The position numbers were made by a program, and so were the translations under genes. Positions 16,571-61,621 of a stretch of DNA of 64,000 nt are shown here, one piece after another. The notes beneath the pieces were generated by a model, which did not search any database, was not told where the DNA came from, and saw nothing but the letters and a program-made list of their open reading frames with translations. The stretch lies in NCBI GenBank assembly GCA_947473325.1, contig CANJEJ010000004.1, positions 4,060 to 68,059 of the forward strand, read 5' to 3'. This stretch comes from Alphaproteobacteria bacterium (GTDB lineage Bacteria; Pseudomonadota; Alphaproteobacteria; SHVP01). Every line of letters starts with the position of its first letter. Position 1 is the first letter of the stretch.

Positions 16571-16729
16571 CCGGCATGGTCGAGCGAGGGCGACAGCGGG
16601 GGCGACTCAACCGGCCGCTGGTGTCCCAATACGCAAAAAAGCCCCGCCAAATCGGCGGGGCGAGGAAGGTGCCGATTCGTATGGGGTATGAAGCGGCAGC
16701 AACATTCTGCTTCTGCCTCTTGCTTGTGA
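16454..16729 (+). pseudogene. truncated N-terminal fragment of a family-5 substrate-binding gene (signal peptide only, then unrelated frame)
   Basis: MTVLAAQRHKMTTLVSTAVGLAILVINTASTAAPAQGKV matches the N-terminus of the 27475 gene. The downstream 50 aa is low-complexity and has no binding-protein body. Confidence 0.5.
16633..16661 (-). terminator. rho-independent terminator with no obvious upstream gene on its strand
   Basis: On the minus strand it reads GCCCCGCC-GATTT-GGCGGGGC followed by TTTTTTGCG. Confidence 0.4.
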
Positions 16730-16925
16730 GTACGAACAATAGTGCCGCACCCAGAAGGGAAGCATGGTGTTGGATGCATAGCTGCCCAACACTGTCTGCC
16801 CCATGCGCGGAGGATTGCCTTGGCCCGGGCCACTGCGCCCGGCAGTTGGCAATAACCAAGCCCCCCTATCGTTTGTTACATTGCCCGGACGTCAATGCAT
16901 CAAGGTTCCCAAGGCTCACTCATCC

Positions 16926-17801: not shown

Positions 17802-17948
17802 GTGATAGCCGGCCCCTTCGCCGATGTATTGCGACGGGACGCCGCCATGAAATTGATGTGAGGTTCTTGCAAGGAACCCGACAATCCTGGCTCCGGTTTT
17901 CACACGTCGCGAGGCGGGTCGTTTGCGGTGATCGAAGGGGGCGGCGAC

Positions 17949-18608: not shown

Positions 18609-18634
18609 CCACCCAGGGTGGACCCCGTGGGGCG

Positions 18635-19762
18635 CTATTTCCGGCCCACCACCATATAACCCGCGCCGCCAATCACGCTGACGCCCCGGCTCAGGTTCTC
18701 GCTCGTGTAGGCGTGCCGCACCTGGTCGGGACGCCAGCCGGCTTCCACGGCCCATTCCGTCAGATCGGAAGCGCGCATCTTGCTGATGAATGGTTCCGCA
18801 TTGAATTGCGTGTCCCAGTCGGGAACAACGCGTTCCAGGGGCGTCAGGTCGCGGAAAGGCGTGCCGTCGTTGTGCACCATCAAACCACCCGGCTTCAGGA
18901 TGCGGAGGGACTCCGCAAAGATATTGTGCAAGGCCGCGGTCGAGGTTTCGTGGATCATGGCGTGCGAGGCAACGATATCGAAGTGGTTGTCCGGAAAACC
19001 GGTCCGTTCGGCGTCCTGCTGGCTGAAGTGGATGTGCCGGCCCAGGGCCTCTGCACGCGCATGGCCATACCGCAGGCAGGGGGCCGCGACATCGATGCCA
19101 TAAATCTCGGCATCCGGGTATTCGTCCACCCAGGCGACCGTCGACTGGCCAATCGTACAGCCCATCTCCAGGATGCGCCTGGGCTTGAGCTGCGGGTGGC
19201 TTCGCTTCACCCACTGCGCCACGTCCTTCCCCAGCCTGTCCATCACGGGTCCTAGCAACCCGGCGGTGTTGAGGTAGGTGGTGCGATCATATTCGGCGCC
19301 GGCAAAAACGTCGTCGGCCGTGAGCTCCGTGTGATAGCCACCCGGCTTGCAGTGAATCTCGATCTCCGTGTTGTAGCGCGGGGCCTTCACATCGGGGGCA
19401 AGCTGCAGGGATCCGATCTTGCGATTGGAGGACCGGTACTTCCTGGCCTTTTCGATCAGGTCCGGCAATTGCCTCTCGACCGCGGGACCGACCGCTTCGC
19501 AGGTGAATTCGCGTGCGATGCGGCGCAGGCTTGACCACATCTGGCCATAGGGGTGCTTCAGGATGCGGCGGCGCTGCTCCACAACCTGCTTCAGGGACGC
19601 CGGCGTGCCCTCGGTGTCGCAGAGCGGCTTGAGCCCGCCCTGGAGCCGAAAGTTGATGTCCTGAATGTAGCTCTGCACGAACAGCTGATAGGCAAGCTCG
19701 TCGTGGTTCACGTCCATCATCATGTCGTGCTGGTGCTGGCCGGCGATGGATCCAGTCTTCAT
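18635..19762 (-). CDS. class I SAM-dependent methyltransferase, paralog 3
   Basis: Trimmed to the ATG at 19762, which has a GAGGTG SD. It shares MWSSLRR, KIGSLQL, EIEIH.KPGGYH, ILEMGCTIGQST, LRYGHARAEALG and HFSQQDAE with paralogs 1 and 2. Confidence 0.75.
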   Translation of the reverse strand: MKTGSIAGQHQHDMMMDVNHDELAYQLFVQSYIQDINFRLQGGLKPLCDTEGTPASLKQVVEQRRRILKHPYGQMWSSLRRIAREFTCEAVGPAVERQLPDLIEKARKYRSSNRKIGSLQLAPDVKAPRYNTEIEIHCKPGGYHTELTADDVFAGAEYDRTTYLNTAGLLGPVMDRLGKDVAQWVKRSHPQLKPRRILEMGCTIGQSTVAWVDEYPDAEIYGIDVAAPCLRYGHARAEALGRHIHFSQQDAERTGFPDNHFDIVASHAMIHETSTAALHNIFAESLRILKPGGLMVHNDGTPFRDLTPLERVVPDWDTQFNAEPFISKMRASDLTEWAVEAGWRPDQVRHAYTSENLSRGVSVIGGAGYMVVGRK

Positions 19763-19895
19763 GGGGACACCTCGATCTGGCAGGAATTGGCCAAGTATCG
19801 GCCAGCTTCTGAACTCAGGCAATGTTGTCGCTTAGGGTATATGGTCCCCGGTGCCCGGGAGTGCGGGCAGCTGAACACCGCGGGTATGTTGCACC

Positions 19896-20348
19896 ATGAG
19901 CCATCGCCTTGCCCTGATTGTGTTCGTCGTGCTTGTTGTCGGTGGCGGCCTCGTCATCGGCTATCTGACAGCGCCGGGCGACTGGTACGCCGCCCTCGAG
20001 AAGCCCTCGTTCAATCCGCCGAGCTGGGTGTTCGCGCCGGCCTGGACCCTGCTCTATGTCGCCATCGCCATCGCGGGCTGGAGAGCCTGGAAGAGCGACA
20101 GCCCCCGATGGCCCATGAGACTTTGGTGGACTCAGCTCGCTCTGAACTTCCTCTGGTCACCCGTGTTTTTCGCCGCCCATCGGATCGGGCTCGCGCTGCT
20201 CGTCATCAGCTTGCTGCTCGCCACCATCCTTGCGTTCATCGCCGTGTCCTGGCGGCAGGATCGCGTTGCGGCCTGGCTGTTTGCGCCCTATGCCGCGTGG
20301 GTATCCTTCGCCTCGCTGCTGAACGCATCAATCCTAGCGCTGAACTGA
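19896..20348 (+). CDS. tspO: TspO/MBR family tryptophan-rich sensory protein
   Basis: 150 aa with 5 TM helices and a W-rich sequence (WYAALEKPSFNPPSWVFAPAWTLLY...). Confidence 0.85.
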   Translation: MSHRLALIVFVVLVVGGGLVIGYLTAPGDWYAALEKPSFNPPSWVFAPAWTLLYVAIAIAGWRAWKSDSPRWPMRLWWTQLALNFLWSPVFFAAHRIGLALLVISLLLATILAFIAVSWRQDRVAAWLFAPYAAWVSFASLLNASILALN

Positions 20349-20412
20349 GCGGGAGGCTTGGCCCTGCCACGCAACGCCCGCCCGGCTGCCGGCCCATTCC
20401 GCCCGCGAGAGG

Positions 20413-20450
20413 AAAAAGGATGCAGATGAAAAGACATCCGCATCCTCTTC
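20413..20450. terminator. bidirectional terminator-like hairpin between convergent genes
   Basis: AAAAA-ggatgcagatg-aaaaga-catccgcatcc-TCTTCC, with one mismatch in the stem. Confidence 0.4.
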
Positions 20451-20465
20451 CAGAGGGGGTTGCCG

Positions 20466-22010
20466 TCAGCCGTCGATGGACATGGCTTCGTAGTGAATGA
20501 TCTTGTTCCAGTTCTTGTAGCCCTTCACACGCTTGGCGACGCCGGTCACGTCGAAGCCTTCATTCAGCGGCAAGGCCATCGCTTCGTCATGCTGGCGCTG
20601 CATCAGCTCCTGCAGGATGGCGAGGCGCTTCTTCACATCCATTTCCTTCTCCTGTGCCTGGATGAGGGGCGTCAGAGACGGAATGCAGGTGAACGTGTTG
20701 GGAAGGTTGCACCCGTAGACGGAGTAAGGGATCGAGGCGTCCATCATCGGCGAGAAGAACATCGCGAACGACGTCAGATCCCCAGCCCAGCTGTTGCCGT
20801 TGAATCGCTTGGACCTTTCCGCGAACGGCATCACCTGGACGCTGACATTGATCCCGACCCGCTTGAGATCGTCCGCCATGATCTGGAGGATGTCGCTGGC
20901 ACCGCTGGTCACTGCCGTTGTTTCCATCAGTAGCGTCAGTCCGTTCGGGTGGCCGGCATCCGCCAAGAGCTGCCTGGCCTTCGCCGGATCATAGGGATAG
21001 GGCTTTACATTCGGGTTGTAGCCGAAGGTAGAGGGCGTGGCCGGCTGTGCTGCGGCAGGCGCCATGCCTTTCAGATAGTCCTTCGACAATGCCTCGCGGT
21101 TGATTGCGTAGTTGGCGGCCTGGCGGACACGCTTGTCAGAGAACGGTGCCTTTCCGCCCCACTTCTTGGCGAAGTCCTCGGTGAACAAGCCGACGGCGGA
21201 CACGAAGGGCGCGCCTTCGACAGCCGCGACATGGCCCGCCGCGCGAACTGCGGGAACATCGTCGGGGCCAAGATTGAAGGAGACATCGACTTCGTTGGAG
21301 ATGAGGGCTGACAGCCGTGTCGCCGCCTCCGGCACGTTGAGGATGCGCAGGTTTCTGGTCTTGGCCGGACGCCAGCTCTTGCTGAATGCGGTCGCCGTCA
21401 TTTCCTGGTCCGTCCAGGACTGCACCTGGAATGGGCCGGACGTCACGGGTTTCACCGAGAATGCCGCGACCCCCATTTCGGTAAACGCTGCCATGTCCAC
21501 CACATAGAACGCCGCCAGCTTGGGCACGAACAGCGGGTCTGGTTCAGCGGTCACAAACTCCACGGTCTGGGGCCCGATCGCCCGATAACTTGCAAGCTTC
21601 ATGTTGCGCATGATTCCGGCGCCCTTGGCCGGCTCGGAATGCAAGTACTTAAAGGCCTTGACCACGTTGGCGGCATCGTTCATCCGGCCGCTGCCAAATG
21701 CGATATCGCTGCGAAATGTCATGCGCCACGTCGTCGGGTTTACCAGTTCCCAACTTTGCGCGGCGAAGGGCAGGATCTGCGCCTTGTCGTCGATCCGGAC
21801 GAACGAATCGAACACGCCTTCCCACCAATAGTTGTGGGGCCAGATGTACTGAATGCCATAGACGTTTCCGCGTGGCGTCGCCTGCTGATACATCGCGACA
21901 CGAAGCGTCTCCTTCGCCCCGTCCTGGGCATGTGCGACAGACACTGGCAGAAGCGTGCCAAGGCTTGCCATGGCGCCCAACAACCATCCAACCGGTGTAT
22001 TTCTCGTCAT
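20466..22010 (-). CDS. ABC transporter substrate-binding protein, family 5, orphan
   Basis: Trimmed to MTRNTPVGWLLGAMASLGTLLPVSVAHAQ (signal peptide). The fold-typical length is 514 aa. Confidence 0.8.
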   Translation of the reverse strand: MTRNTPVGWLLGAMASLGTLLPVSVAHAQDGAKETLRVAMYQQATPRGNVYGIQYIWPHNYWWEGVFDSFVRIDDKAQILPFAAQSWELVNPTTWRMTFRSDIAFGSGRMNDAANVVKAFKYLHSEPAKGAGIMRNMKLASYRAIGPQTVEFVTAEPDPLFVPKLAAFYVVDMAAFTEMGVAAFSVKPVTSGPFQVQSWTDQEMTATAFSKSWRPAKTRNLRILNVPEAATRLSALISNEVDVSFNLGPDDVPAVRAAGHVAAVEGAPFVSAVGLFTEDFAKKWGGKAPFSDKRVRQAANYAINREALSKDYLKGMAPAAAQPATPSTFGYNPNVKPYPYDPAKARQLLADAGHPNGLTLLMETTAVTSGASDILQIMADDLKRVGINVSVQVMPFAERSKRFNGNSWAGDLTSFAMFFSPMMDASIPYSVYGCNLPNTFTCIPSLTPLIQAQEKEMDVKKRLAILQELMQRQHDEAMALPLNEGFDVTGVAKRVKGYKNWNKIIHYEAMSIDG

Positions 22011-47527: not shown

Positions 47528-48276
47528 CGGCCGTGGGCCTGCCTGCGCTCAAGGCCACGGGCATCCGCGCCAGCTATGGCGTCGGCGAGATCATTCGCGG
47601 CATCGATTTCGAGGTCGCCGCCGGCGAGGTGGTCGTGATCATCGGTCCGAACGGCGCCGGCAAGTCGACCTTCCTGCGCGCGCTCTACGGTCTCATCCAG
47701 ACGACCGGCCTGGTGATGCTGGGCGGCCAGCGGATCGATGACGTGGCGGCAGACCGGCGGCTCGACCTCGGCCTTGCCTTCGTGCCGCAGGGCCGCTGCA
47801 ATTTCGCCGGACTGACGGTGCTGCAGAACCTTGAGGCCGCCTTGCTGCGCCTGCCGCGCGCCAAACGGGCCGCCGCGCTGGAAAGCACGCTTGAGCTGTT
47901 CCCGCCGCTGCGCCGGCTGTTGCGCCGCCGCGCGGGAAACGCCAGCGGCGGCGAGCAGCAGCTTGTCGAGATGGCGATGGCGCTGGTGAGCCAGCCCAAG
48001 GTCGTGTTGCTGGACGAACCGACGCTCGGCCTGTCGCCCATCGCCAGCGAATTCGTCTTCGACACCATCAAGGCGCTGCGCAAGACCGGGACCGGCGTCG
48101 TTATCGTCGAACAGAACGCCCGCCAGGCGCTGGAGATCGGCGACCGCGCCTATGTCTTCGAACAGGGCGTCAGCCGCATCGTCGACCGTTGCGACCGGCT
48201 GCTGGGCGACCGGCGCATCCGCGAAGTCTTCCTTGGCGGCAGCGTCGACGACCTTCCCCTCACGACCGAGTCATAA
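47524..48276 (+). CDS. Liv-type ABC ATPase (LivF-like)
   Basis: ATGA overlap. Walker A is GPNGAGKST; the signature is ASGGEQQ. Confidence 0.85.
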   Translation: MTAVGLPALKATGIRASYGVGEIIRGIDFEVAAGEVVVIIGPNGAGKSTFLRALYGLIQTTGLVMLGGQRIDDVAADRRLDLGLAFVPQGRCNFAGLTVLQNLEAALLRLPRAKRAAALESTLELFPPLRRLLRRRAGNASGGEQQLVEMAMALVSQPKVVLLDEPTLGLSPIASEFVFDTIKALRKTGTGVVIVEQNARQALEIGDRAYVFEQGVSRIVDRCDRLLGDRRIREVFLGGSVDDLPLTTES

Positions 48277-48392
48277 GGGCGGCAGGCGATCGGCCTAGCG
48301 CGGAACAGCACGTCAAAGCGTTCCAGTGTTTTCCGTAACCGCGTCGGCCAGCACACGCCGCGCTTGCAGCGCTCGCAAATAGTCGGCCGCGC

Positions 48393-49037
48393 CTAGGAAG
48401 GCGCCGAAGGCAAAACGATGCCGCCTGAGCGAGCAAGCTCCTCTCGAAGAGACTTGAGCAATGCTTCCTTCGATAGCAGTCCCGGGATGGCAATCCTCGC
48501 GTCGATCACGAAGGTCGGCACCGACCCAATTCCCCATTGCTCCCGGGTCAGGCGCAGCAGACCCTCACATTCCTTCCGGTATGTGTCGTTATCGAGAGCT
48601 GACCTGAAGGATTGAGCGTCAAGGCCCAGCTCCTGGGCGCATCGGGTAAGAACTTCGGGTTTTCCAATATCCAGTTCGTCCTGAAAAAACGCCGTGAACA
48701 TACGGTGGTTGTACTCGCGAGCCCTTCCCTGATCGCGTGCAAACAGCGCTCCTTCAAAGGCAAGACGAGTGTAGGGCTGAGGCGAAACGCGCGGGAGAAC
48801 GATCTTGATGCCCATCCGCTCGGCGAGCGGGTAGACCGAGTTACGCCAGCCGTCCTGGAGATAATCGTCTTCTGGCTTGAGCGTGGGAGTGGGATGGGGT
48901 CTCAGCTCGAATGGCAGCCACTCGACCACCGCATCGCTACCGAGCTCCTTGATTGCCTCGTCGAGAGGGCCCTCGGCCAGAAAGCAGTAGGGGCAGACGT
49001 AATCCGAAACGACTTGAATCTTCATAGGCACTGTCAC
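48393..49037 (-). CDS. DsbA-family thiol:disulfide oxidoreductase (FrnE/HCCA-isomerase-like)
   Basis: The CPYC active site lies in IQVVSDYVCPYCFLAEGPL. Confidence 0.75.
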   Translation of the reverse strand: MTVPMKIQVVSDYVCPYCFLAEGPLDEAIKELGSDAVVEWLPFELRPHPTPTLKPEDDYLQDGWRNSVYPLAERMGIKIVLPRVSPQPYTRLAFEGALFARDQGRAREYNHRMFTAFFQDELDIGKPEVLTRCAQELGLDAQSFRSALDNDTYRKECEGLLRLTREQWGIGSVPTFVIDARIAIPGLLSKEALLKSLREELARSGGIVLPSAPS

Positions 49038-49389: not shown

Positions 49390-52300
49390 GTGCTGACCCT
49401 TTTTAGGCCCAAAGCATCCGGTCCGCCCCAAGGTTACAAATACTGGGCGTTTATCAGCTACAGCCATCGCGATTCGTCGTGGGGCGATTGGCTACACCGC
49501 AAGCTGGAGACTTTCGTCGTACCGGCCCAGATCATTGGGAAGGACATCAGCGCTGGTGTGCCGCGGCGTCTTTATCCAGTGTTTCGCGACCGCGAAGAAC
49601 TACCAACGGCAGCGGCCCTCAGCTCCAACATCGAGACGGCGCTGCGTGAGTCGAAATATCTCATCGTCATCGGTTCACCGAATGCGGCACGTTCGCTCTG
49701 GGTCAACAATGAGATCGAGACCTTCAAACGACTTGGGGGTTCGGACCGAATCCTTTGTCTTGTCGTCGACGGAGAGCCGAATGCCTCGGCTGACCGTGCC
49801 GGCGAAGAGTGTTTTCCGCTCGCTCTGCGCTACCGCTATGACGCCGCGGGCCAGCGCACCGACGTGCGCAGCGAACCGCTGGCGGCGGATGCCCGTCCGG
49901 GCAAGGATGGCAAACGCAACGCGCTGTTGAAGATCATTGCCGGTGTACTCGGCATCGACTATGCGAAGCTCAAGGATCGTGAAGGTCGTCGCCGTGCAAG
50001 ACAGCTGGCCGCAGTCGGCTCCCTTGTCGGCGCGGCCATTCTACTGTTCGCCGGGCAGCAATTTCTTGCCTACCGCAATCTTGCCGTCGAGCACGCCGCG
50101 ACCGAGCGGGCGTTGCTGGAATCCGAACTCCGCCTCGCTGAAAGCCAGGTGGCGCGGGGTGGGATGCTGGAAGAACGCAATGACTACACCGGGGCGAAGA
50201 ATGCCTATGCCCAGGCCTATGCCATACAGGCGCGTCATGCGGTGTCAGACCTGGCGGCGCGGCTCGGCTACCTTTCGGCGCAGGAACATCTGCCGGACCC
50301 GCTGCTGCGCTTCAGGGCTGACACGCCAGTTTCCGCGCTTGCCGTTGATGGTACAGGTTGCTGCCTGGTCACCGGACATGACGACGGCAGTATTGCGGTC
50401 TGGAAGACAGACGCCGGCCAGCCGCGCAGAACCCCTGTATCGACCGCCCCGATTGCGGGATTGGGGCTCATCGCAGGTTCGTCTCAGGCGGTTGTCGTCG
50501 ATCGTCTCGGCCGCGTTGTAGTCGTCGATATCGACGCCGGTAGTAGTCGCGTGGCGAGCGATGGCGCACTCGGCACAGTGAGTGCGGTTGTCGTCATGCC
50601 GAACGGTCAGGTGCTTTTGGCCGTGACATTGCCGCCCGCCCCTTCGGCCGCCGACCCGAGCAAGCAGGAACCCCGCTCTCGGGTTATTCACTACGACGCT
50701 CTGACCCAGAACATAGTACGGGACTTCCTGTTTCCCGGACCGGTCCGCGCGCTGGCTCTAAGCCCTGACGGCACATCGATCTTTGTTGCCGACGAGATCG
50801 CAGTAGAAATCGTCTTTGACCCTGGCCCCGCTATTCGACGCCGTTTTGTCGGCAACAAGGCGAGCAAAGACTTTTCCAGCCATGGCTTCGTCTATCAGTT
50901 CCGCATCGACAGCATGGCGGTCTCGGCGGACGGCGGCACACTCGCGCTGGGCTATAGCGATGGCATCCTGGAGTTTTGGGATCTCAATACAGGCAAACAG
51001 ACCTACGGCACGCGGGTGCTCGTTGGCAGCATCGGTACCCTTCACGATGGCAACGAGGGAAAAGCCTTTCTCTTCGGCGACAATGACGGTCGAGTGAGAG
51101 CGGTGGAACAAAAGAAGCGGCGCAACCTGCACCGTCACATTGCGCCAGTCGTTGCGCTGGCGCTGACGCCCGACGGCACCACGATCGTCAGCACGGATGG
51201 CCATGATATTGCGCTGTACAGTGGCGGTGACAGCGCCACATGGCTGCACCGGATCGGGCACGACGCTGGCATGATGCCGACCGCGGATTTCTCGCCCGAC
51301 TCGCGTCTGATGGTTACCCACGAATTGCTTGATGAGACGATTCACGTTTGGAGTGTCGCCAGCCAAGTCCGGCTGGTTTCTATTGCTTTTGACGATACGG
51401 TGACGGCGGCGTACTTCGTCAGCGCTAACGAACTGTTAGTGGCATTGAGCAGCGGCAGGGTGTTTTTGTACGATCTCGTCAAGCGCCAGGAGACTAGCCG
51501 CCTGCGAGAAGCAGGTGGCTCAGAGATCGACGCCTTCACCCTCTCTAAGAATCGGCAGCGTTGGGCAGTCATGTCGGGCGCACAGGTCACCGTCGCTGAT
51601 GTGCACGGTAAGAATCAGACCCATCTGCCCGTCGCCGTCAGCAAGCAAGGGGCTGTCCTGACATTGTCGCACGACGGCTCACGCATCGCCGTCGCCGCTG
51701 CTGGCCAAGTGACGGTTTGGACGGCTGCCGATCGTCGTCGCTTGCAGCAAATCGATCTCCCTCCGGGCCAAGCCATCGGTGCGATGGTACTAAGTGACGA
51801 CGACACCATGCTGGTGACGGCACATGAGGACGCTCGCCTCAGAGTCTGGGACATTCCCAGTGGTCGCATGGTGCGCACGATCCGCGGTCATGAAGGCGGT
51901 CTTGTGACCGCACTTGCGTTGATGCCGGACAATCGGACCGTCATTTCTGGCGGGTTCAACGGCGATCTCCGTTTCTGGGAAATCGGCGAAGGCAATGAAC
52001 TGCACAAGGTAGACGTCGGTCCGCCGATTCGGAAACTGACGGTTTCGCCGACGGGTGTCCTTGCCTTAGGCGTCTTCGGTGACTCTAACGTCTATGGCGA
52101 GATCGATCTCGTCCTGCTCGACAGTACGCCCGGTCGAACCTTAATCGAAGCATCCGGTTCGTTCAGCCGCGGACCGCAGGCTATTGCAACGCGTAAGCAA
52201 GCCTTCGTGAGCATGGCCGATTGGTACCGGACGCGCGGCCGTTGTCCTGAGGCGATCAGACTTTACGATCTTGCCTGGCAAGTGGACCGGCGATTCCCGG

Positions 52301-52449
52301 GCGAGCCAGATGGCATGATCGATTGCCTGACCAAGACTGACAATGAAGCAAGGGCATTGTCCGTGCTTGAGACGATTGCTGCGAACGGCGCGGAGCGGGA
52401 CAACGACATCGCCGCTCGGCTTTGGCTTCGATATCTTGAGGCAAGGTGA
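49390..52449 (+). CDS. TIR-domain / transmembrane / TPR-like / WD40-repeat protein (1019 aa), candidate anti-phage effector
   Basis: GTG start with an AGAGGG SD. YWAFISYSHRDSS...VFRDREELP...YLIVIGSPNAARSLWVNNEIETF is a TIR_2-type pattern. A TM helix (LAAVGSLVGAAILLFAG) is at about residue 205. WD motifs (IAVWKTD, LEFWDLNTG, RVWDIPSG, LRFWEIG) span residues about 330-900. Confidence 0.75.
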   Translation: MLTLFRPKASGPPQGYKYWAFISYSHRDSSWGDWLHRKLETFVVPAQIIGKDISAGVPRRLYPVFRDREELPTAAALSSNIETALRESKYLIVIGSPNAARSLWVNNEIETFKRLGGSDRILCLVVDGEPNASADRAGEECFPLALRYRYDAAGQRTDVRSEPLAADARPGKDGKRNALLKIIAGVLGIDYAKLKDREGRRRARQLAAVGSLVGAAILLFAGQQFLAYRNLAVEHAATERALLESELRLAESQVARGGMLEERNDYTGAKNAYAQAYAIQARHAVSDLAARLGYLSAQEHLPDPLLRFRADTPVSALAVDGTGCCLVTGHDDGSIAVWKTDAGQPRRTPVSTAPIAGLGLIAGSSQAVVVDRLGRVVVVDIDAGSSRVASDGALGTVSAVVVMPNGQVLLAVTLPPAPSAADPSKQEPRSRVIHYDALTQNIVRDFLFPGPVRALALSPDGTSIFVADEIAVEIVFDPGPAIRRRFVGNKASKDFSSHGFVYQFRIDSMAVSADGGTLALGYSDGILEFWDLNTGKQTYGTRVLVGSIGTLHDGNEGKAFLFGDNDGRVRAVEQKKRRNLHRHIAPVVALALTPDGTTIVSTDGHDIALYSGGDSATWLHRIGHDAGMMPTADFSPDSRLMVTHELLDETIHVWSVASQVRLVSIAFDDTVTAAYFVSANELLVALSSGRVFLYDLVKRQETSRLREAGGSEIDAFTLSKNRQRWAVMSGAQVTVADVHGKNQTHLPVAVSKQGAVLTLSHDGSRIAVAAAGQVTVWTAADRRRLQQIDLPPGQAIGAMVLSDDDTMLVTAHEDARLRVWDIPSGRMVRTIRGHEGGLVTALALMPDNRTVISGGFNGDLRFWEIGEGNELHKVDVGPPIRKLTVSPTGVLALGVFGDSNVYGEIDLVLLDSTPGRTLIEASGSFSRGPQAIATRKQAFVSMADWYRTRGRCPEAIRLYDLAWQVDRRFPGEPDGMIDCLTKTDNEARALSVLETIAANGAERDNDIAARLWLRYLEAR

Positions 52450-52910: not shown

Positions 52911-55154
52911 CTAGTTGTTCTCGTCGGTGTCGGTGGACGGCTTGGGAGAGACCGTTTTTGGGGCCGGCGGCGGATCTATCGGCAGCGCATCCAGGGGCAG
53001 GCAGGCCGCCCGCGATTTGGTGCCGGCAAAGGTGAGGGGGTGGCCGGACGGCGTGGCGCCGGAAACACGGCGGAGGGACTGACTCCAGACCCCGTTGGCC
53101 CAACGGCTCCCCCGATAGATCTGAGTCAAACCCTGATCGTTCTCGCTGTTGGACACCGCCAACGCCGCGGCGTCCCTGATCGAGCGACTCACCTTGCCGT
53201 CCCGTGTAACGACCAACAGGCCGTGACGCCTAAGATTTGCATGGGCCCAGCGATTGCCATTGAGAGCCGCCACGATGACTTCGCCAACAGTCAGGGTTTG
53301 TCTCCTCGTGACCTTCACCGTGCCTTGCTTTTCTTCATACTCGACAACGATGCGGCTACTGCAGAGATGGTTCAGGCATTGCTCGGGATCACCCTCCCCG
53401 TCGGCGCCTGTCACATCCTCGACCGCGAAGAGTCGCACCACGGTCTCGGCGTCGGATGCCGTCGCGACTTTGTCAGAGTAGAAGATCTCGGCCGCGCCGA
53501 GCAGTGGTGCCATTCGGTCGATTGAGCGGGGGCTGTGCCCCGCTTCGGCGAGAACCATCTCATAGAGGTCGATGTTTGCCTGGAGGCGGCCATCAGCAGC
53601 GGCATCAAGAACACGACGCATAAAACGCGGGCCGAGGTCTGAGAAGTCGCGAAGGCGCTCTCTATGAGCGCGGCCGATGGGCTCGCCACTCTCATCCGAT
53701 CCGGTGGGCAGCGGTAGAAGCTCGAGCTTGTAGAAGCGACTTTGATCTTGCGGTCGCAGGGTCACATGCAGAATGGACGTGATGCAGATGATGGCGTTGA
53801 CTGGCCACTGCGTGGCGACACCGCCGGCGCTTCCCCGCCCCACCGGCGCCTGGTCGGCGGTCGAAGCGAGACGAGAGAGGTCATAGACGTCGCGGGCCCG
53901 CCCCTGACGATCGGTTTCCAGCTCATCAATCAGCACCGCGCGGGCGCCAGAACCCAATTGCTGACGGATGCCGGCCTCCGTCGGTGCCGAGAGGCAAAGG
54001 GCGGTGCTGCCCAGCAGTTTCTTGAGTAGTCCATCAAGCGTGCTCTTGCCGCTGCCGCTGCGCCCTGTCACGAGCAAATGCGGCCGCCACGAAAGCAAGC
54101 CCGGGATCATTGCGCAGGCAATCCAACCCAGAAGGATCCGGGGTGCGGTGAGAGGCGCTGCCCAGACCCAACTCTCGACGAAATTCAGCAGGTCTTGCGC
54201 TTGCGCTAGCGTCGCAGCTTCGTTAGCCGGCCGCGTCACCGGGATGCTGCGCGGATAGACATAACCGCCGAGCAGGAAGCCGGGTTCGCGCCACGTCTTG
54301 TCCACCAACACCGCATCGCCACAATGAACAATCAGGGTGCGCCGTCCTGCAGTCTCCGGACCCCGCCACACGCCAACGTCCCGGATCTGCCGAGGCGGGT
54401 CAAAACTGCCTGCCGCCGCCGCTTCATGGATTAGGAAGTCCCGGGCCTTGTCGGGCACCCAACCGACTACAGAACCTTCCTTGTATTTCGGGAAAGTTTT
54501 GCGCAGCCACTCGACGTCACCATCGAAGAGACCTGAAATTTCGTGCGCCGTGAAGTCCCGCGCCTTCAACTTCCTCAGTTGCCCATCCTTCTGGATGAAA
54601 TGATAGGCGCCCTCGCTGTCCTTCCCGATCGGTGTGATCGGTATGCCATCATGCGGCAAACCATCACCTTCATTCCTGTGGCCTCTGTGCGCGTTGTCCT
54701 TCGACCTGTGCGCGCTGCCGCCGACATGTGACTCCCCACCGCCGTCACCACCGGATGTTTGCTCGCCGACATGCGAGGCCTGCTCGTCTTGATTTCCCAT
54801 GATTTCCCGATGGGGATCTGCACTGCGGTCCTCAGCGGCCACGATGGCGCGGCTCCCACCTGCGGAGGTGCGTGGTTCGTTTGCGTGCTCCGACGGGGCC
54901 GGCACGTGCAGCTCAGCTTTCTGGATGAGGTCCCTGATTCGCTGTTCCCCCACTCGGGATTCCGATGAGGCGTCCGCGCTTCGTCGTTTCGATGCCATGA
55001 CGGTACCCGGTCGCGAGTCGCGCCAAGCGGAATCCAAAGCGTACTCAGTCGCGCGCTGCGGCCATGATCCACAAGTCTGATGATTCCGGGAATTGTGATG
55101 TTGGTTCCTATTCATTCCCTGTTGTTCCGCAAGATCGATGGCTAATATGGCCAC
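52911..55154 (-). CDS. P-loop NTPase, putative mobile-element replication/primase-helicase-like protein
   Basis: 747 aa. Walker A is LVTGRSGSGKSTL; Walker B-like is VLIDELE. A Gly/His-rich low-complexity N-terminal region is present. The start is uncertain (GTG at 55154 or ATG at 54998). Confidence 0.55.
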   Translation of the reverse strand: MAILAIDLAEQQGMNRNQHHNSRNHQTCGSWPQRATEYALDSAWRDSRPGTVMASKRRSADASSESRVGEQRIRDLIQKAELHVPAPSEHANEPRTSAGGSRAIVAAEDRSADPHREIMGNQDEQASHVGEQTSGGDGGGESHVGGSAHRSKDNAHRGHRNEGDGLPHDGIPITPIGKDSEGAYHFIQKDGQLRKLKARDFTAHEISGLFDGDVEWLRKTFPKYKEGSVVGWVPDKARDFLIHEAAAAGSFDPPRQIRDVGVWRGPETAGRRTLIVHCGDAVLVDKTWREPGFLLGGYVYPRSIPVTRPANEAATLAQAQDLLNFVESWVWAAPLTAPRILLGWIACAMIPGLLSWRPHLLVTGRSGSGKSTLDGLLKKLLGSTALCLSAPTEAGIRQQLGSGARAVLIDELETDRQGRARDVYDLSRLASTADQAPVGRGSAGGVATQWPVNAIICITSILHVTLRPQDQSRFYKLELLPLPTGSDESGEPIGRAHRERLRDFSDLGPRFMRRVLDAAADGRLQANIDLYEMVLAEAGHSPRSIDRMAPLLGAAEIFYSDKVATASDAETVVRLFAVEDVTGADGEGDPEQCLNHLCSSRIVVEYEEKQGTVKVTRRQTLTVGEVIVAALNGNRWAHANLRRHGLLVVTRDGKVSRSIRDAAALAVSNSENDQGLTQIYRGSRWANGVWSQSLRRVSGATPSGHPLTFAGTKSRAACLPLDALPIDPPPAPKTVSPKPSTDTDENN

Positions 55155-55885: not shown

Positions 55886-55928
55886 GCAATCTGCCACGCT
55901 CCATCTCCGCGCATCGTGAGGTGTGGAG

Positions 55929-56165
55929 ATGGCCAAAGTAGACGAGCCGCTTGAGCGGTTGGGTACGAAGGAAGTTGCCGCGTATTTGGGACTCGCGTCC
56001 TCCACGTTGAGAAAGTGGCGCATGACGGGCGATGGCCCGCCGTTCCACCGTCTGGGCAAGCGCCTGATCTTCTACAAGCTGGCCGATCTGGAAGCCTGGC
56101 TAGAGGAATGCAGCCGCCAGCGCCCTCCGGGCTATAACCTGCAGGGTGCGACGGGGCATGAGTAA
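55929..56165 (+). CDS. AlpA-family HTH transcriptional regulator / excisionase-like
   Basis: LGTKEVAAYLGLASSTLRKWRMTGDGPPFHRLGKRLIFYKLADLEAWL matches the AlpA/Xis MerR-type HTH pattern. A GAGGTG SD is present. The inverted repeat CCATCTCC...GGAGATGG overlaps the start. Confidence 0.6.
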   Translation: MAKVDEPLERLGTKEVAAYLGLASSTLRKWRMTGDGPPFHRLGKRLIFYKLADLEAWLEECSRQRPPGYNLQGATGHE

Positions 56166-56361
56166 CGGGCTCGCCCCCGATCTGCTCACGCCCACCGAGC
56201 GCATCGCCGAGTTGGGCGCCCTGCTGGCCGCCGGCCTCATCCGTCTCCACGCTTCCCAGTCAAGTCGAACATCTGCCGTGTCCCGAGACAGTTCGGTGGA
56301 CTGTGCCGCCGACCAGAGCGTCGATGCGACCGCCCTCAACGAGACGGAGGAAGACGCATGA
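56158..56361 (+). CDS. small hypothetical protein (67 aa)
   Basis: The start overlaps the AlpA-like stop. Its stop overlaps the next start (ATGA). Confidence 0.3.
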   Translation: MSNGLAPDLLTPTERIAELGALLAAGLIRLHASQSSRTSAVSRDSSVDCAADQSVDATALNETEEDA

Positions 56362-56807
56362 CAGACAGCGTGCTGGCCCGCCTGGCGGCCCTCAAGACCA
56401 CGCCCACGGCCGAGCTCAAGAAACAGTGGCAGGCTCTCTTCGAGACGCCCCCGCCCCGCTACAACCGCCGTTTCCTCGAGAACCGCCTCGCCTACCGGAT
56501 TCAGGAGCTGGCCTATGGCGGGCTCAAGCCTGAGACTCTCAAGACCCTGGCGACGCTCGCCGTACAGCTCGAGGCGAAGACGCCCGCAGGGCGTGCGAAG
56601 CCCGATTCCGACATGCCGGTCGAAGGCACCCAGCTCCTGCGTGAGTGGGGCGGCGTCATGCACCGGGTGACCGTGCTTCGCAACGGTTTTGAGTGGGAAG
56701 GCCGGTCCTACAAGTCCCTGTCGATTATCGCGCGGACCATCACGGGCACCCAGTGGAACGGCCCTGCCTTCTTCGGCCTACGCCGCAAACCCCGGAGCGC
56801 CGAATGA
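56358..56807 (+). CDS. DUF2924-like protein (typically found immediately upstream of large serine recombinases)
   Basis: 149 aa. Its position is ATGA-coupled to the recombinase. LKKQWQALFETPPPRYNRRFLENRLAYRIQE and WNGPAFFGL are recalled as characteristic of the family. Confidence 0.5.
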   Translation: MTDSVLARLAALKTTPTAELKKQWQALFETPPPRYNRRFLENRLAYRIQELAYGGLKPETLKTLATLAVQLEAKTPAGRAKPDSDMPVEGTQLLREWGGVMHRVTVLRNGFEWEGRSYKSLSIIARTITGTQWNGPAFFGLRRKPRSAE

Positions 56808-58180
56808 CCACGCCCGCCCGGCGGCTCCGTTGTGCCGTCTACACGCGCAAGAGTTCCGAAGAAGGATTGGATCAGGCCTTCAACTCGCTCGACGCCCAGC
56901 GCGAGGCCTGTGCCGCCTATATCGCCAGCCAGAAGGGCGAAGGCTGGTCCCTGGTGATGGACCCCTATGACGATGGCGGTGTCTCTGGCGCCACCCTGGA
57001 GCGCCCCGCGCTCAAGCGCCTGCTGGCCGATATCGAGGCTAGTCGCGTCGATATGGTGGTGGTCTACAAGATCGACCGCCTCTCCCGCTCCCTGATGGAC
57101 TTCGCCCGGCTGGTCGAGGTCTTCGACCGCCAGCAGGTAACCTTCGTGTCGGTGACGCAGGCCTTCAACACCACGACCAGCATGGGCCGGCTCACCCTCA
57201 ACGTGTTGCTCAGCTTCGCCCAGTTCGAGCGCGAGGTCATCGGCGAGCGCATCCGCGACAAGTTCGCCGCTTCACGCAAGCGCGGCATGTGGATGGGTGG
57301 CACGGTGCCCTTCGGCTACCGGGTGGAGGCCCGCAAGCTGGTCATCCGCGAGGATGAGGCCGCCATCGTGCACAAGGTCTATGACCGCTTCCTCAAGCTG
57401 GGCTCGGCCACCCTGCTGGCGCAGGAGCTGGCGAAGCAGGGGGTCTGCATGCGCCGCGGCGGACCCATCGACAAGGGCGCAATTTACAAGCTGCTGCACA
57501 ACCCGGTCTATGTCGGGGAGGCGGTTCACAAGGGCGTCAGTTACCCGGGCGAGCACGAGGCCATTGTCAGCCGGGCCCAGTGGGACAAGGTGCGGGCGGT
57601 CCTGGCCGAGAACCCCAACCTTCGGGCGGGGCGGGTCCGGGCCAAGACGCCCTTCCTGCTGAAGGGCCTGATCTTCGGCCCCACTGGCGAGGCGATGTCG
57701 CCGAGCCATACCAGGCGGGGCAGCAAACTGTACCGGTATTACGTCAGCCAAGCGGTGCTGCGGCGCGGCAAGGATGCCTGCCCGTTGGGGCGGGTGCCGG
57801 CGGCGCTGATCGAGGGTGCGGTCATCGGCCAGCTGCGGGCGCTGCTGAAGCAGCCGGAGGTCATCGTCAGCACCTGGCGGGCCACGCGGGGGCAGGTCGA
57901 GCACTTCAGCGAGCAGCAGGTGACCGAGGCCCTCACCAGACTGGACCCGTTATGGGAGCATCTCTTTCCGGCCGAGCAGGCGCGCATCGTGCAGCTGCTG
58001 GTCGAGCGGGTCGATGTGCAGGAGACGGCCATCGAGATCCGGCTGCGCACGGCCGGGCTGGCATCGGTGGTGGAAGAGCTCTCGCAGTTGCGGGGTACCA
58101 ACGACGTCGGGGCAGCGGCGAAGCCCCAGGCCGGCCGGCGCCGCCGGACAGAAAACGACCCACGGCGAGAGGCTGCGTGA
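56804..58180 (+). CDS. large serine recombinase (resolvase/invertase N-terminal domain plus recombinase and zinc-ribbon domains)
   Basis: VYTRKSSEEGLDQAFNSLDAQREAC contains the catalytic Ser. VVYKIDRLSRSLMDF and the recombinase domain (GGTVPFGYRV...) are present. 458 aa. Confidence 0.85.
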   Translation: MTTPARRLRCAVYTRKSSEEGLDQAFNSLDAQREACAAYIASQKGEGWSLVMDPYDDGGVSGATLERPALKRLLADIEASRVDMVVVYKIDRLSRSLMDFARLVEVFDRQQVTFVSVTQAFNTTTSMGRLTLNVLLSFAQFEREVIGERIRDKFAASRKRGMWMGGTVPFGYRVEARKLVIREDEAAIVHKVYDRFLKLGSATLLAQELAKQGVCMRRGGPIDKGAIYKLLHNPVYVGEAVHKGVSYPGEHEAIVSRAQWDKVRAVLAENPNLRAGRVRAKTPFLLKGLIFGPTGEAMSPSHTRRGSKLYRYYVSQAVLRRGKDACPLGRVPAALIEGAVIGQLRALLKQPEVIVSTWRATRGQVEHFSEQQVTEALTRLDPLWEHLFPAEQARIVQLLVERVDVQETAIEIRLRTAGLASVVEELSQLRGTNDVGAAAKPQAGRRRRTENDPRREAA

Positions 58181-58653
58181 TGAGCACGGCGGTCCGCCGA
58201 ACCTCCGACACCCTGGTCGTGCGTGTGCCGATGACGTTCCGGAAGCGCGGCGGGCGGCGGATGGTCATCCTGCCCGACGGTGCAGAAGCCTTCGAGCCGA
58301 CCGCCGCGCGCCCACAGCCGGTGAGTGCAAGTCTCAAGGCCATGGTGAAGGCGTTCCGCTGGCGGCACCTGCTGGAGACCGGGGTGTATGCGGAGATTGA
58401 TGACATTGCTGAGGCCGAGGGTGTGAACCCCTCCTATGCCAGCCGGATCTTCCGACTCACGCTGCTGGCACCAGACATCGTCGAGGCGATTGTTGAGAAC
58501 CGGCAGCCGGAGGCGCTCACGCTGGCGAAACTGCTCGCGCCGTCACCGGTGAAATGGAGCCTCCAACTCCAGCACTTCAACCTGCTGAGGGACGCGCGAA
58601 CGGTTGACGTGCCTGAAATGGCGTTAGGGAACGCTTCTGAATCAAGCACTTGA
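58180..58653 (+). CDS. hypothetical DNA-binding protein downstream of the recombinase
   Basis: A TGATG overlap links it to the recombinase stop. IDDIAEAEGVNPSYASRIFRLTLLAPDIVEAIVENRQP is an HTH-like segment. Confidence 0.4.
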   Translation: MSTAVRRTSDTLVVRVPMTFRKRGGRRMVILPDGAEAFEPTAARPQPVSASLKAMVKAFRWRHLLETGVYAEIDDIAEAEGVNPSYASRIFRLTLLAPDIVEAIVENRQPEALTLAKLLAPSPVKWSLQLQHFNLLRDARTVDVPEMALGNASESST

Positions 58654-58759: not shown

Positions 58760-61621
58760 GTGACGACCGATTACCACGCGAAATATTTTGCCTACGAGCT
58801 GACCAGAAGGCACGCGCCCGGAAGTGGCGACAAACTTGCGGGTGCAGTCGCCGGCGCGCAGGTGGACCTGAACCCGCACCAGGTCGATGCTGCGCTTTTC
58901 GCCTTTTCCTCCCCGCTCTCCAAGGGCGCACTTCTGGCCGACGAGGTAGGCCTAGGAAAGACGATCGAAGCTGGTCTCGTCATTTCACAGCGGTGGGCGG
59001 AACGAAAACACTGCGTCCTGATCATCACGCCCTCGAACCTCCGAAAGCAGTGGCACCAAGAACTTAGCGAGAAGTTCTTCCTTCCATGCGTGATTCTGGA
59101 GTCGCGTTCCTACAACGAGGCAATCAAGTCGGGACGCTTTCGTCCGTTCGACGTAAAGGACACCGTTGTCATTTGCTCCTATCAGTTTGCGCGGAACAAG
59201 GCGGCCGATGTGCAGGCCATGCCGTGGGACCTCGTCGTTATTGATGAGGCGCATCGGCTCCGCAATGTTTACAAGCCGGGAAACGTCATCGCGAATACGC
59301 TGAAGCAGGCGCTCGCGCAGAAGCAGAAGCTGCTCCTGACGGCGACGCCGCTGCAGAACTCCCTGCTGGAGCTATTTGGCCTCGTAAGCTTTATCGACGA
59401 ACACACATTCGGCGATCTCAAGAGCTTCCGCGAGCAATTCGCCAACCTCGCGCAGGATCGCGTGTTCCATGTTCTCAAAGAGCGGCTGAAACCGCTCTGC
59501 CATCGCACCTTGCGTCGGCAGGTCACCGCCTACGTCCCCTACACGCGGCGCCTGGCGCTCGTTGAGGAGTTCACGCCAACCGATGGCGAGGATCGGCTGT
59601 ACGAGCTCGTGTCGGAGTATCTGCGGCGGGACAACCTGCAAGCCCTCCCGGCCAGCCAGCGCTCCCTGATGACGCTCGTTCTTCGGAAGCTGCTCGCGTC
59701 CTCAACCTTCGCCATCGCCGGGGCGCTGTCGTCCATCTCGCGGCGGATGCAGGCCAAGCTCAAGAAGCACGAGGTCGATGCGCCGCTAGAGGATGATCTC
59801 GGCCAAGACTATGAGAGCCTCGATGCCACGGCCGAGGAGTGGACCGAGGACGAGGAGCTTGAACCCCTGACGGACGCAGATCGCAAGGCGATCGAGTCCG
59901 AAATCGCTGATCTGAACGAGTTCGCTCGGCTCGCCACGTCGATCGACCACAATGCCAAGGGGAAGGCGCTGCTGAAGGCGTTAGGTGTGGCTTTCGCGAA
60001 GGCCGAGGAACTTGGCGCCGAACCAAAAGCAATCATCTTCACCGAGTCACGAAAGACACAGGCCTATCTGCTACGGGTCCTCGCCGACAGCCCCTACGCC
60101 GACGGCGTTGTACTGTTCAACGGCACGAACACTGACGACCGCTCGAAACAAATTTACGCCCGATGGATCGAGCGTCATCAAGGCTCGGATCGCGTCAGCG
60201 GGTCGAAGACGGCCGACATGCGATCGGCCCTGGTGGACTATTTCCGCGAGGAAGGCCGCATCATGATCGCGACCGAGGCTGGCGCCGAGGGGATTAATCT
60301 TCAGTTCTGCTCTCTGGTCGTGAACTACGACCTCCCTTGGAACCCGCAGCGCATCGAGCAGCGAATTGGCCGGTGTCATCGCTACGGCCAGAAGCACGAC
60401 GTGGTGGTCGTCAACTTCCTCAATCGCAAGAACGAAGCCGATCAGCGCGTTTATCAGCTTCTGTCTGAGAAGTTCAAACTCTTCGAAGGTGTGTTCGGAG
60501 CGAGCGATGAAGTGCTGGGCGCCATCGAGTCCGGCGTGGACTTCGAAAAGCGGATCAGCGCCATCTATCAGCAATGCCGACAAACGGAAGAGATCAAGAC
60601 AGCCTTCGATAAGCTCCAGTTGGAGCTCAGCCTCGAGATCAACGAGGCGATGAGCGAGACCCGGCAAAAGCTGCTGGAGAACTTCGACGACGAAGTCCGC
60701 GAGAAACTCAAGATTCGGGACGAGGATGCCAAGGTCTACCTCGACCGCTTCGAGCAGCTGCTCATGCGCCTCACCCGGCATGAGCTGAACGACAGCGCCG
60801 AGTTCCTAAACGTGTCGTCCTTCCGCTTGAAGTCGAAACCGCCTTGGGCCGACGGCCGGGCCGTTCCGCTCGGCCTCTACGAGTTGCCGCGCCGTTCTGG
60901 CGAAGCCCACCTTTACCGGCTGAGCCACCCCCTGGGCGAAGCCATCGTCGAACGGGCCAAGGCGCGAGAGCTTGCCGTTGCGGAGCTGATCTTCGAATAC
61001 AGCAAACATACTGGCAAGGTGAGCGCGCTTGAGCCTCTCAATGGCAAGACCGGGTGGCTCACCGCAGCCATGGTCACCATCGAAGCCCTCGACCAGGCCG
61101 AAGATCATCTCCTCTTGTCCGGCTTGTCGGATGCCGGCGAGCCGTTGAGCGACGACGCCGCGTTACGCCTACTGACGCTGGCGGGACACGTTGGGGCAGC
61201 GGCAGCGCCGCCAGTTGATATGATCGATCGGCTAAAAGGAGATCTCCACCTCCGGCAGCAGGTCATCCAGCGCTCGATCTCGGAGCGCAATGCACGCTTC
61301 TTCGAAGCCGAGGCGGACAAGCTCGACGGCTGGGCGGATGATCTCAAAGTCGGCCTCGAACGTGAAATCAAGGAAATCGACAGGCTGATCAAGGAAGCAC
61401 GCCGCGCCGCCACGGCGGCGCTCACACTTGAGGAGAAGCTCGCCGGTCAGAAGGCAGTCAAGGCATTGGAGGCCGACCGCAGCACCAAGCGCCGAACACT
61501 TTTCGAGGCGCAAGATCGCATCGACGCTGACCGCGCCAAACTAATCGCCGACATTGAAGGCAAATTGGACCAGAAGATTTCCGAGGAGCACCTCTTCACT
61601 ATTCGATGGAGGGTCGTCTGA
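58760..61621 (+). CDS. SNF2-family helicase (953 aa)
   Basis: LADEVGLGKTIEAG (motif I), DLVVIDEAHRLRN (DEAH), LLLTATPLQNSLLELFGL (SNF2 motif III) and the helicase-C region (MIATEAGAEGINLQ...QRIGRCHRYGQ) are present. A long coiled-coil C-terminus follows. Confidence 0.85.
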   Translation: MTTDYHAKYFAYELTRRHAPGSGDKLAGAVAGAQVDLNPHQVDAALFAFSSPLSKGALLADEVGLGKTIEAGLVISQRWAERKHCVLIITPSNLRKQWHQELSEKFFLPCVILESRSYNEAIKSGRFRPFDVKDTVVICSYQFARNKAADVQAMPWDLVVIDEAHRLRNVYKPGNVIANTLKQALAQKQKLLLTATPLQNSLLELFGLVSFIDEHTFGDLKSFREQFANLAQDRVFHVLKERLKPLCHRTLRRQVTAYVPYTRRLALVEEFTPTDGEDRLYELVSEYLRRDNLQALPASQRSLMTLVLRKLLASSTFAIAGALSSISRRMQAKLKKHEVDAPLEDDLGQDYESLDATAEEWTEDEELEPLTDADRKAIESEIADLNEFARLATSIDHNAKGKALLKALGVAFAKAEELGAEPKAIIFTESRKTQAYLLRVLADSPYADGVVLFNGTNTDDRSKQIYARWIERHQGSDRVSGSKTADMRSALVDYFREEGRIMIATEAGAEGINLQFCSLVVNYDLPWNPQRIEQRIGRCHRYGQKHDVVVVNFLNRKNEADQRVYQLLSEKFKLFEGVFGASDEVLGAIESGVDFEKRISAIYQQCRQTEEIKTAFDKLQLELSLEINEAMSETRQKLLENFDDEVREKLKIRDEDAKVYLDRFEQLLMRLTRHELNDSAEFLNVSSFRLKSKPPWADGRAVPLGLYELPRRSGEAHLYRLSHPLGEAIVERAKARELAVAELIFEYSKHTGKVSALEPLNGKTGWLTAAMVTIEALDQAEDHLLLSGLSDAGEPLSDDAALRLLTLAGHVGAAAAPPVDMIDRLKGDLHLRQQVIQRSISERNARFFEAEADKLDGWADDLKVGLEREIKEIDRLIKEARRAATAALTLEEKLAGQKAVKALEADRSTKRRTLFEAQDRIDADRAKLIADIEGKLDQKISEEHLFTIRWRVV

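Follow-up and report, generated by a model that had tools for sequence, protein, structure and literature searches.

Bacterial TIR immune proteins, as described in the literature that we surveyed, all sense something inside the cell. In type VII Thoeris, a TIR protein is paired with a SLATT protein and cyclic ADP-ribose (cADPR) serves as the signal (Yirmiya et al., 2025, preprint), and binding or cleavage of 2'/3'cADPR has recently been shown for RyR-domain proteins (PMC13232231). In AbTir (W204/E208) and SARM1 (W638/E642), the WxxxE motif combines a catalytic glutamate with a tryptophan that is needed for ADP-ribose (ADPR) cyclisation (10.1101/2022.05.07.491051). Another layout is found in Ser/Thr kinases of Planctomycetota, in which the catalytic domain is followed by a transmembrane (TM) helix and by WD40 or TPR repeats that are predicted to be periplasmic (PMC11032199). 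Here, we describe a gene at positions 49390–52449 of a 64,000-nucleotide stretch of DNA (the whole of which is called the window) from an Alphaproteobacteria bacterium (contig CANJEJ010000004.1), which encodes an enzyme-type TIR domain, a predicted membrane helix and two WD40 beta-propellers in one polypeptide. The gene, which is solitary and associated with a mobile element, belongs to a very large and uncharacterised family, and we propose, with a probability of about 0.5, that its product is a type II single-pass membrane receptor with a cytoplasmic TIR NADase and a WD40 sensor outside, which would sense conflict or stress at the cell envelope.

The open reading frame (ORF) lies on the forward strand, is intact in an ORF check of the window, starts with GTG and encodes 1019 amino acids; the motifs quoted in an initial annotation of this DNA were all located in the product (FISYSHRD at residues 21–28, VFRDREELP at 64–72 and LIVIGSPNAARSLWVNNEIETF at 91–112). 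As that annotation had proposed, a TIR domain occupies the N-terminus. Pfam TIR_2 matches residues 21–130 with 45.8 bits (cut-off 28) and ThsB_TIR matches with 33 bits (cut-off 21.2), whereas no significant match to the ThsB model of PADLOC was obtained (E = 0.019). A separate AlphaFold2 (AF2) model of the TIR module reached a predicted local distance difference test score (pLDDT) of 90, and its top Foldseek matches (E from 1e-4 to 1e-2) were all TIR domains, with SPARTA TIR-APAZ first and TLR1/TLR15, L6, RPP1, AbTir and ThsB among the others. Together with conservation, these data delimit an extended TIR domain at residues ~16–190 (49435–49959), in which residues 130–190 form a family-specific extension with invariant E140, C141, D167 and R169.

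The remainder of the protein was resolved with an AF2 model of the full length, which was built on 45 relatives and has a mean pLDDT of 82. In this model, the TIR fold (18–187) is followed by one continuous helix (191–262) that encloses a hydrophobic stretch at 203–227, by two further helices (266–282 and 288–298), and by 56 strands at 306–910 that make up 14 blades, that is, two seven-bladed propellers; a disordered loop then leads to a five-helix bundle at 935–1018. The first propeller (residues ~303–612; 50296–51225) comprises 28 of the strands, and the second (residues ~618–911; 51241–52122) contains the best canonical WD40 repeats found by Pfam (826–863). The WD40 family of Pfam scores 86 bits, many beta-propeller families match across residues ~310–890, and the whole model retrieved tandem WD40 propellers from the PDB with Foldseek, in agreement with the propeller that had been annotated on the C-terminal side. 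The annotated TPR-like linker stood in part only: the juxtamembrane linker (residues 228–300; 50071–50289) is helical in the model, but its TPR nature was not supported, and a TPR-like helical bundle that had been missed lies instead at residues 935–1018 (52192–52443). NCBIfam gave no match above its cut-offs, with a weak TPR-type (LcrH/SycD) match at 933–1003, and by per-region identity P0002, the closest homolog, has the bundle as well, whereas P0003 lacks it.

The active site was sought by alignment and conservation. The initial annotation had placed the catalytic glutamate in the motif RDREEL (residues 66–71; 49585–49602), which is indeed conserved (R68, E70 and L71 are invariant) yet corresponds in the alignment to the BB-loop region that follows strand betaB. 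The catalytic glutamate of plant TIR domains (SWCLxEL) aligns instead with E108 in the segment S-L-W104-V-N-N-E108, so that the glutamate had been misplaced. The WxxxE motif formed by W104-V-N-N-E108 lies at the start of helix alphaC (49699–49713), and all 120 relatives compared retain both W104 and E108. E108 is thus predicted to be the catalytic glutamate and W104 the tryptophan linked to cyclisation, and the TIR domain looks catalytically competent.

Between the TIR domain and the propellers, AF2 placed only the TM helix and the helical linker. The predicted TM helix (residues 203–227, LAAVGSLVGAAILLFAGQQFLAY; 49996–50070) is Ala/Gly-rich and uncharged for more than 20 residues, carries a GxxxG motif at G210–G214 and is preceded by RRRAR; the single membrane helix of the initial annotation is therefore upheld as a prediction, although its Kyte–Doolittle hydropathy (1.69) is weaker than the family mean (2.2). 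One hydrophobic segment was observed at residues ~195–230 in ~90% of the top 120 relatives, and in a set of 186 members a hydrophobic helix of 19–30 residues occupies the same position in 93%. In this set, Lys and Arg together average 6.2 in the 15 residues that precede the helix and 2.8 on its far side, and the N-terminal side is the richer one in 97%. In addition, sister architectures carry the typically extracytoplasmic domains PEGA, FG-GAP and PQQ/BamB-like on the C-terminal side of the helix. From the positive-inside rule and this charge bias we infer that the TIR domain is probably cytoplasmic, where NAD+ is, and that the WD40 propellers are probably outside the cytoplasm; as the TIR domain is N-terminal, the orientation would be type II.

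To delimit the family, an alignment profile of the ~200-residue TIR module plus one hydrophobic helix (residues ~195–230) was used, which retrieved at least 9,022 clusters at 50% identity (E <= 1e-30) and matched the present protein with E = 4e-105. The module was found in at least 570 species-representative genomes, and its members are very numerous in Verrucomicrobiota, Planctomycetota and Acidobacteriota. At least 2,210 relatives came up in a word-indexed search with the protein; they belong to Verrucomicrobiota, Deltaproteobacteria, Magnetococcales, Planctomycetota and Bacteroidales, are mostly 850–1400 residues long, and have database names that are mostly just "TIR domain-containing protein" or "WD40 repeat protein". 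The subfamily of the present protein is rare: its nearest relatives are 45% and 35% identical, only these two exceed 30% identity over the full length, an exact look-up of the protein had no match, and when metagenomes were scanned twice for proteins close to its ectodomain, the first scan found none and the second nine weak partial matches. The claim that the architecture matches no named system was sustained, since neither PADLOC nor NCBIfam holds a full-length model and no description of a TIR-TM-repeat architecture was found in the literature searched; PADLOC has no model for the TIR-TM family or its partner families, and gave only weak partial matches to the protein. The view of an unusual one-off fusion, on the other hand, is contradicted by the number of clusters.

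What follows the TM helix is variable. Among 79 genomic loci, the C-terminal part is a TPR array in 42 (mostly from Gammaproteobacteria), WD40 propellers in 19 entries including the present one, an unannotated domain of ~400 residues in nine, a PEGA, FG-GAP and PQQ/BamB-like combination in two, and PQQ/WD40 in one. Across phyla, the TIR domain retains 56–66% identity, versus 20–44% for the ectodomain. As judged from sequence comparison, this is a pattern of receptor-like evolution, in which a conserved TIR domain is combined with diverged and swapped ectodomains (WD40, TPR and others).

Clustering of the genes that neighbour the relatives revealed two recurrent partner families. The first, F1 (~590 residues), carries DUF4231/SLATT_3 and was found at 26 loci, nearly all of the TPR type. 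The second, F2 (~590–760 residues), combines TPR-S/MAP3K_TRAF_bd with an adenylate/guanylate cyclase domain and in many cases begins with a RyR domain. The N-terminal domain of F1 is homologous to the middle domain of F2 (hhalign 96.8%, E = 2.5e-10). This common domain, which spans ~150 residues and contains the motifs AEGxD, WDG and GGTA in this order, was observed in the partner genes at L072 13216–14901, L042 11925–14201, L006 5339–7618 and L102 6201–7958, and it looks like a ligand-sensing domain. The label "SLOG-like" that we use for it in F1 rests on motif resemblance to SLOG/LOG and on the hhalign match to F2; a sequence-profile search of the PDB was empty and so did not confirm it, and no Pfam family matched.

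In the WD40-type group, about 8 of 20 distinct contexts (~40%) have a gene for a TPR-S-cyclase protein (with or without RyR) or for a protein with two TM helices, TrkA_N and RyR adjacent or near. The TPR-S-cyclase gene occurs in six contexts (L006, L013, L047, L074, L078 and the P0106 loci) and lies directly upstream and co-directional at the P0106 loci; the TrkA_N-RyR gene occurs in two (those of P0003 and P0064). The latter type, with two N-terminal TM helices, TrkA_N (RCK) and a C-terminal RyR domain, is encoded divergently from WD40-type TIR-TM genes at L099 5749–7479 and L081 5224–7242, both on the reverse strand. Considered with the cADPR findings for RyR proteins and type VII Thoeris, the linkage to RyR, cyclase and SLATT partners argues that the TIR domains of the family may make an ADPR-derived messenger, and by this analogy suggests a cADPR-type signal in the WD40-type relatives; the TrkA_N-RyR genes beside TIR-TM genes, together with the known action of RyR on cADPR, are a hint of a bacterial TIR-cADPR-RyR link. 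Some further neighbours were observed. A multi-pass membrane protein of ~550 residues is encoded 0.4–2.3 kb downstream of WD40-type TIR-TM genes (L099 11188–12840 and L102 13116–14768), with 41% identity between these two unrelated contexts and the N-terminal motif GFNPTDDGF.LAY.RR.LDG. Behind TPR-type TIR-TM genes there is often a gene for a protein of ~150 residues (F8/F10; L072 12233–12685) or for a Cys-rich protein of ~800–1000 residues (F5; L045 12467–14797), and neither protein has any Pfam or PADLOC match.

On the basis of these observations, we propose that the propellers and the small helical bundle form a ligand-binding sensor outside the membrane, tied to the TIR domain by the TM helix and a helical stalk. 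Known TIR NADases are active only as oligomers. A ligand at the level of the envelope would cluster the ectodomains and TM helices, and the clustering would assemble the TIR domains into an oligomeric state. The output would be NAD+ consumption and/or an ADPR-derived messenger, such as an isomer of cADPR, which in many relatives might be read by the adjoining RyR-, TPR-S/cyclase- or SLATT-domain proteins. As the present gene has no such neighbour, its output is likely to be direct NAD+ depletion or to pass through an unlinked partner. The likeliest role would be that of an envelope sensor of conflict or stress, such as attack by phages or competitors, and in this genome the gene would be cargo beside a mobile element that also bears genes of restriction and abortive-infection type. 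A bolder version, which we hold only tentatively, takes the family as the bacterial counterpart of Toll-like receptors (TLRs): an extracytoplasmic sensor (WD40, TPR or other) would detect an envelope threat (phage adsorption or ejection, or a competitor) and activate the cytoplasmic TIR domain, the cADPR-type product would be read by RyR channel-like proteins, cyclases with SLOG-like domains or SLATT pores in a prokaryotic TIR-cADPR-RyR axis, and the copy in the window, partner-less and borne on a mobile element, would kill or arrest the cell by NAD+ depletion.

Several observations weigh against the envelope receptor proposed here, and each of them bears on an alternative. First, the hydrophobic segment is marginal in this protein and its two closest relatives (Kyte–Doolittle 1.69, 1.33 and 1.5). 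Such values would suit a cytoplasmic sensor-effector, in which the segment is a tether or coiled coil, both flanks are cytoplasmic and the propellers bind an intracellular phage protein in the manner of STAND/Avs proteins or Apaf-1-type repeats; canonical GH/WD-type WD40 repeats are best known in cytoplasmic proteins, and Apaf-1 propellers are among the Foldseek matches to the whole model. We nevertheless regard this arrangement as unlikely, because the stretch is strongly hydrophobic in 93% of members and accompanied by a marked positive-inside asymmetry, the sister architectures bear PEGA, FG-GAP and PQQ, neither the AF2 model nor the 25 best Pfam matches listed for the protein include an NTPase domain, and the WD40/TPR arrays of the analogous kinases are predicted to be periplasmic (PMC11032199).

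Second, the protein has a Gly at position 95 (C95G), where 118 of 120 relatives (98%) have Cys, and no RyR, TPR-S/cyclase or SLATT-type partner was found anywhere in the 64-kb window by tblastn and profile hidden Markov models. Both observations, as well as the rarity of the subfamily and the nearly empty metagenome scans, could be read as signs that the TIR domain is non-catalytic and serves for oligomerisation or as an adaptor only, or that this copy is decaying and non-functional. With all 1019 codons intact, every invariant position of the family retained (W104 and E108 included) and a confident AF2 model, however, we judge decay or loss of catalysis to be very unlikely.

Third, the surroundings of the relatives offer little sign of defence. 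The initial annotation had read the gene as a candidate anti-phage system and had looked to an enrichment of homologs near known defence genes; in a small and statistically uncontrolled sample of 15 propeller-type loci with 106 neighbours no enrichment is visible. Of these neighbours, two matched PADLOC families among the 25 matches listed, and both are reverse transcriptases that we take to be intron-type because homing-endonuclease models also match; the other Pfam matches among the 106 are to housekeeping functions. The closest relative (45% identity) has a metabolic setting, among TauD, SGL, MarR, PhoD and RND genes, the P0025 and P0106 genes (20 and 24 contigs) are stably placed among genes for tRNA modification, ribosomal proteins, Tat and aminoacyl-tRNA synthetases, and no relatives were found in the phage genomes searched. 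Moreover, cytoplasmic phage proteins are the usual triggers of bacterial TIR systems and would be invisible to an extracytoplasmic sensor. Since its sensor is predicted to lie outside the cytoplasm, unlike those of known bacterial TIR defence proteins, the anti-phage reading is weakened; an anti-phage role is plausible but draws no support from the neighbourhood counts, and a broader role in envelope conflict or signalling is equally compatible with the data.

These stable housekeeping contexts and the lack of a visible PADLOC enrichment would fit a physiological signal-transduction receptor rather than an immune one, in which the extracytoplasmic repeats sense a cue and the TIR messenger feeds cyclic-nucleotide or ion-channel signalling, as the TIR counterpart of receptor Ser/Thr kinases. 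The partners are of signalling type (TPR-S with guanylate/adenylate cyclase, and TrkA_N with RyR), and Verrucomicrobiota, Planctomycetota and Acidobacteriota, which are rich in the family, also expand kinase-TM-WD40/TPR receptors. Other contexts point the opposite way. On rhizobial megaplasmids (L094, Sinorhizobium pK101b; L095, Rhizobium leguminosarum p_2), two to four TIR genes of the family are clustered and interleaved with genes for hypothetical proteins, a DUF4071 protein, a patatin, a serine protease and a UvrD-like helicase; P0064 adjoins TIR and nSTAND1-WD40 genes; and the copy described here adjoins a recombinase/replication module with DrmD-like, AIPR, methylase and Res genes. In addition, the bacterial TIR enzymes described in the surveyed literature all act in conflict or immunity. 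We consider a purely physiological receptor less likely, and retain the sensor of envelope conflict or stress as the preferred reading.

The gene stands alone beside a mobile module, as the initial annotation had indicated, and beside defence-type genes, as profile matches show. Both flanking genes are on the opposite strand, so that the gene is taken as a stand-alone transcription unit; simple scans for promoters and terminators around it gave no signal above chance. Upstream and divergent is a gene for a DsbA-like thioredoxin-fold protein (48393–49037, reverse strand; profile matches), in which CPYC occurs at residue ~15 and a signal peptide is not evident. Downstream and convergent is a gene for a P-loop protein of 680–747 residues, depending on the start (52911–55154, reverse strand), which matches no Pfam family and has relatives of 25–29% identity on small plasmids of Arsenophonus (8 kb), Phaeobacter (40 kb) and Atlantibacter (19 kb), one of them annotated as a CHC2 zinc-finger protein; owing to these plasmid relatives, it is likely to be the replication protein of an integrative element. 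On the forward strand follow an HTH_17/AlpA-like gene, a DUF2924 gene and a large serine recombinase gene (together 55923–58180; recombinase 56804–58180), assigned by profile matches. Straight after the recombinase lies an ORF of 157 residues (58177–58653, forward strand), which matches no Pfam family and is among the genes called on the source contig. Next come, on the same strand, a DrmD-like SNF2 helicase gene (58760–61621; PADLOC DrmD, E ~1e-204) and, up to 63438, one for an AIPR/AbiU-like protein (PADLOC and profile matches). Past the window, the source contig (ENA ERZ28612979, scaffold_2068, 93,884 bp) continues with an N6_N4 methyltransferase of 589 residues and then a ResIII helicase of 900 residues; in the numbering of L096, this continuation of the DrmD-like/AIPR/methylase/ResIII cluster lies at 16643–21111. 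This gene combination fits neither textbook DISARM nor a simple type III restriction-modification system.

Base composition places the edge of the acquired region slightly differently from the initial annotation, which had the GC content drop exactly at the TIR gene (~49.04 kb). GC content at third codon positions (GC3) is 0.80–0.88 in the amidase and liv genes (livF, 0.88), is already down to 0.66 in the DsbA-like gene, and remains at 0.67 in the TIR gene and 0.67–0.69 in the next two genes, so that the shift lies at ~48.3 kb (48276–48393), one gene upstream, and the DsbA-like gene may have arrived together with the TIR gene. The DUF2924 and recombinase genes (0.84–0.86) are host-like and stand between genes of lower GC3 (DrmD-like, 0.76; AIPR, 0.66), which indicates a compositional mosaic. 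No tRNA, Rfam family or att-like repeat that would mark the edge of the element was found around the gene. A search for the empty integration site by means of the exact DsbA-like protein recovered only the same arrangement, and a blastn comparison of the liv operon with plasmids retrieved nothing beyond generic matches to proteobacterial ABC transporters. Within the window, the TIR gene is a further cargo candidate of a mobile element that carries restriction and abortive-infection-type genes.

Several known systems were considered as possible homes for the protein and rejected. Membership in Thoeris was ruled out, as no effector adjoins the gene: its neighbours are the DsbA-like and replication-like genes on the opposite strand, and the 64 kb hold no F1, F2, RyR or SLATT-type gene. 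A TIR effector of CBASS or Pycsar was ruled out because there is no cyclase in the neighbourhood and the PADLOC SAVED_TIR match is weak (E = 4.5e-4) and restricted to residues 63–126 of the TIR domain. A STAND/NLR-like TIR-NTPase-repeat protein was ruled out since no NTPase family is among the 25 best Pfam matches and AF2 shows the TM helix and linker in its place, and a secreted Tcp-like virulence TIR was ruled out because the protein has neither a signal peptide nor a secretion context and is a large membrane receptor. The TLRs themselves were ruled out because the ectodomain consists of two WD40 propellers rather than leucine-rich repeats (LRRs) and the orientation is predicted to be type II rather than type I.

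Likeness to these systems is nevertheless evident at several levels. With Thoeris, the TIR domain shares the ThsB_TIR match and the WxxxE motif, and the relatives share the logic of a TIR signal generator with a reader as in type VII, the TPR-type genes adjoining DUF4231/SLATT_3 and the WD40-type genes adjoining RyR or TPR-S/cyclase; the difference is that the TIR domain here has a membrane anchor and shares its polypeptide with a large repeat sensor, which is probably extracytoplasmic. TIR-STAND/NLR-like proteins, SPARTA TIR-APAZ (the top structural match), SpbK, TIR-STING and SARM1 are similar in fusing effector and sensor and in switching on the TIR NADase by oligomerisation, whereas NTPase, STING and SAVED domains and an Argonaute partner are all missing from the present protein, which instead has a TM helix and a sensor that is probably outside. 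The kinase-TM-WD40/TPR receptors of Planctomycetota (PMC11032199) also join a cytoplasmic catalytic domain, through a single TM helix, to tandem repeats at the C-terminus, and both groups alternate between WD40 and TPR as the repeat type; the catalytic domain of these receptors, however, is a protein kinase rather than a TIR NADase, and the output chemistry is unrelated. Toll-like and interleukin-1 receptors likewise pass the membrane once and place their repeats outside and the TIR domain inside, activation by ligand-induced clustering is expected in both cases, and TLR1 and TLR15 provide some of the best structural matches to the TIR domain; in contrast to the predicted N-in, type II protein with WD40 repeats described here, TLRs are type I proteins, the ectodomains are LRR or Ig domains, and the TIR domains of TLRs act as adaptors, whereas the present one keeps the catalytic WxxxE motif. 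There is no evidence for common descent of the whole architecture with TLRs, and the likeness is one of layout. If the proposed receptor is correct, TIR/NAD+ signalling would extend to surveillance of the cell envelope, carried out by a family of more than 9,000 clusters with interchangeable, outside-facing sensors that would be the closest bacterial analogue of TLRs in layout, and the linkage of its relatives to RyR and cyclase genes would make a cADPR-RyR connection in bacteria open to test. Taken together, it is the layout of the protein that recalls TLRs and receptor kinases, and its chemistry that recalls Thoeris.

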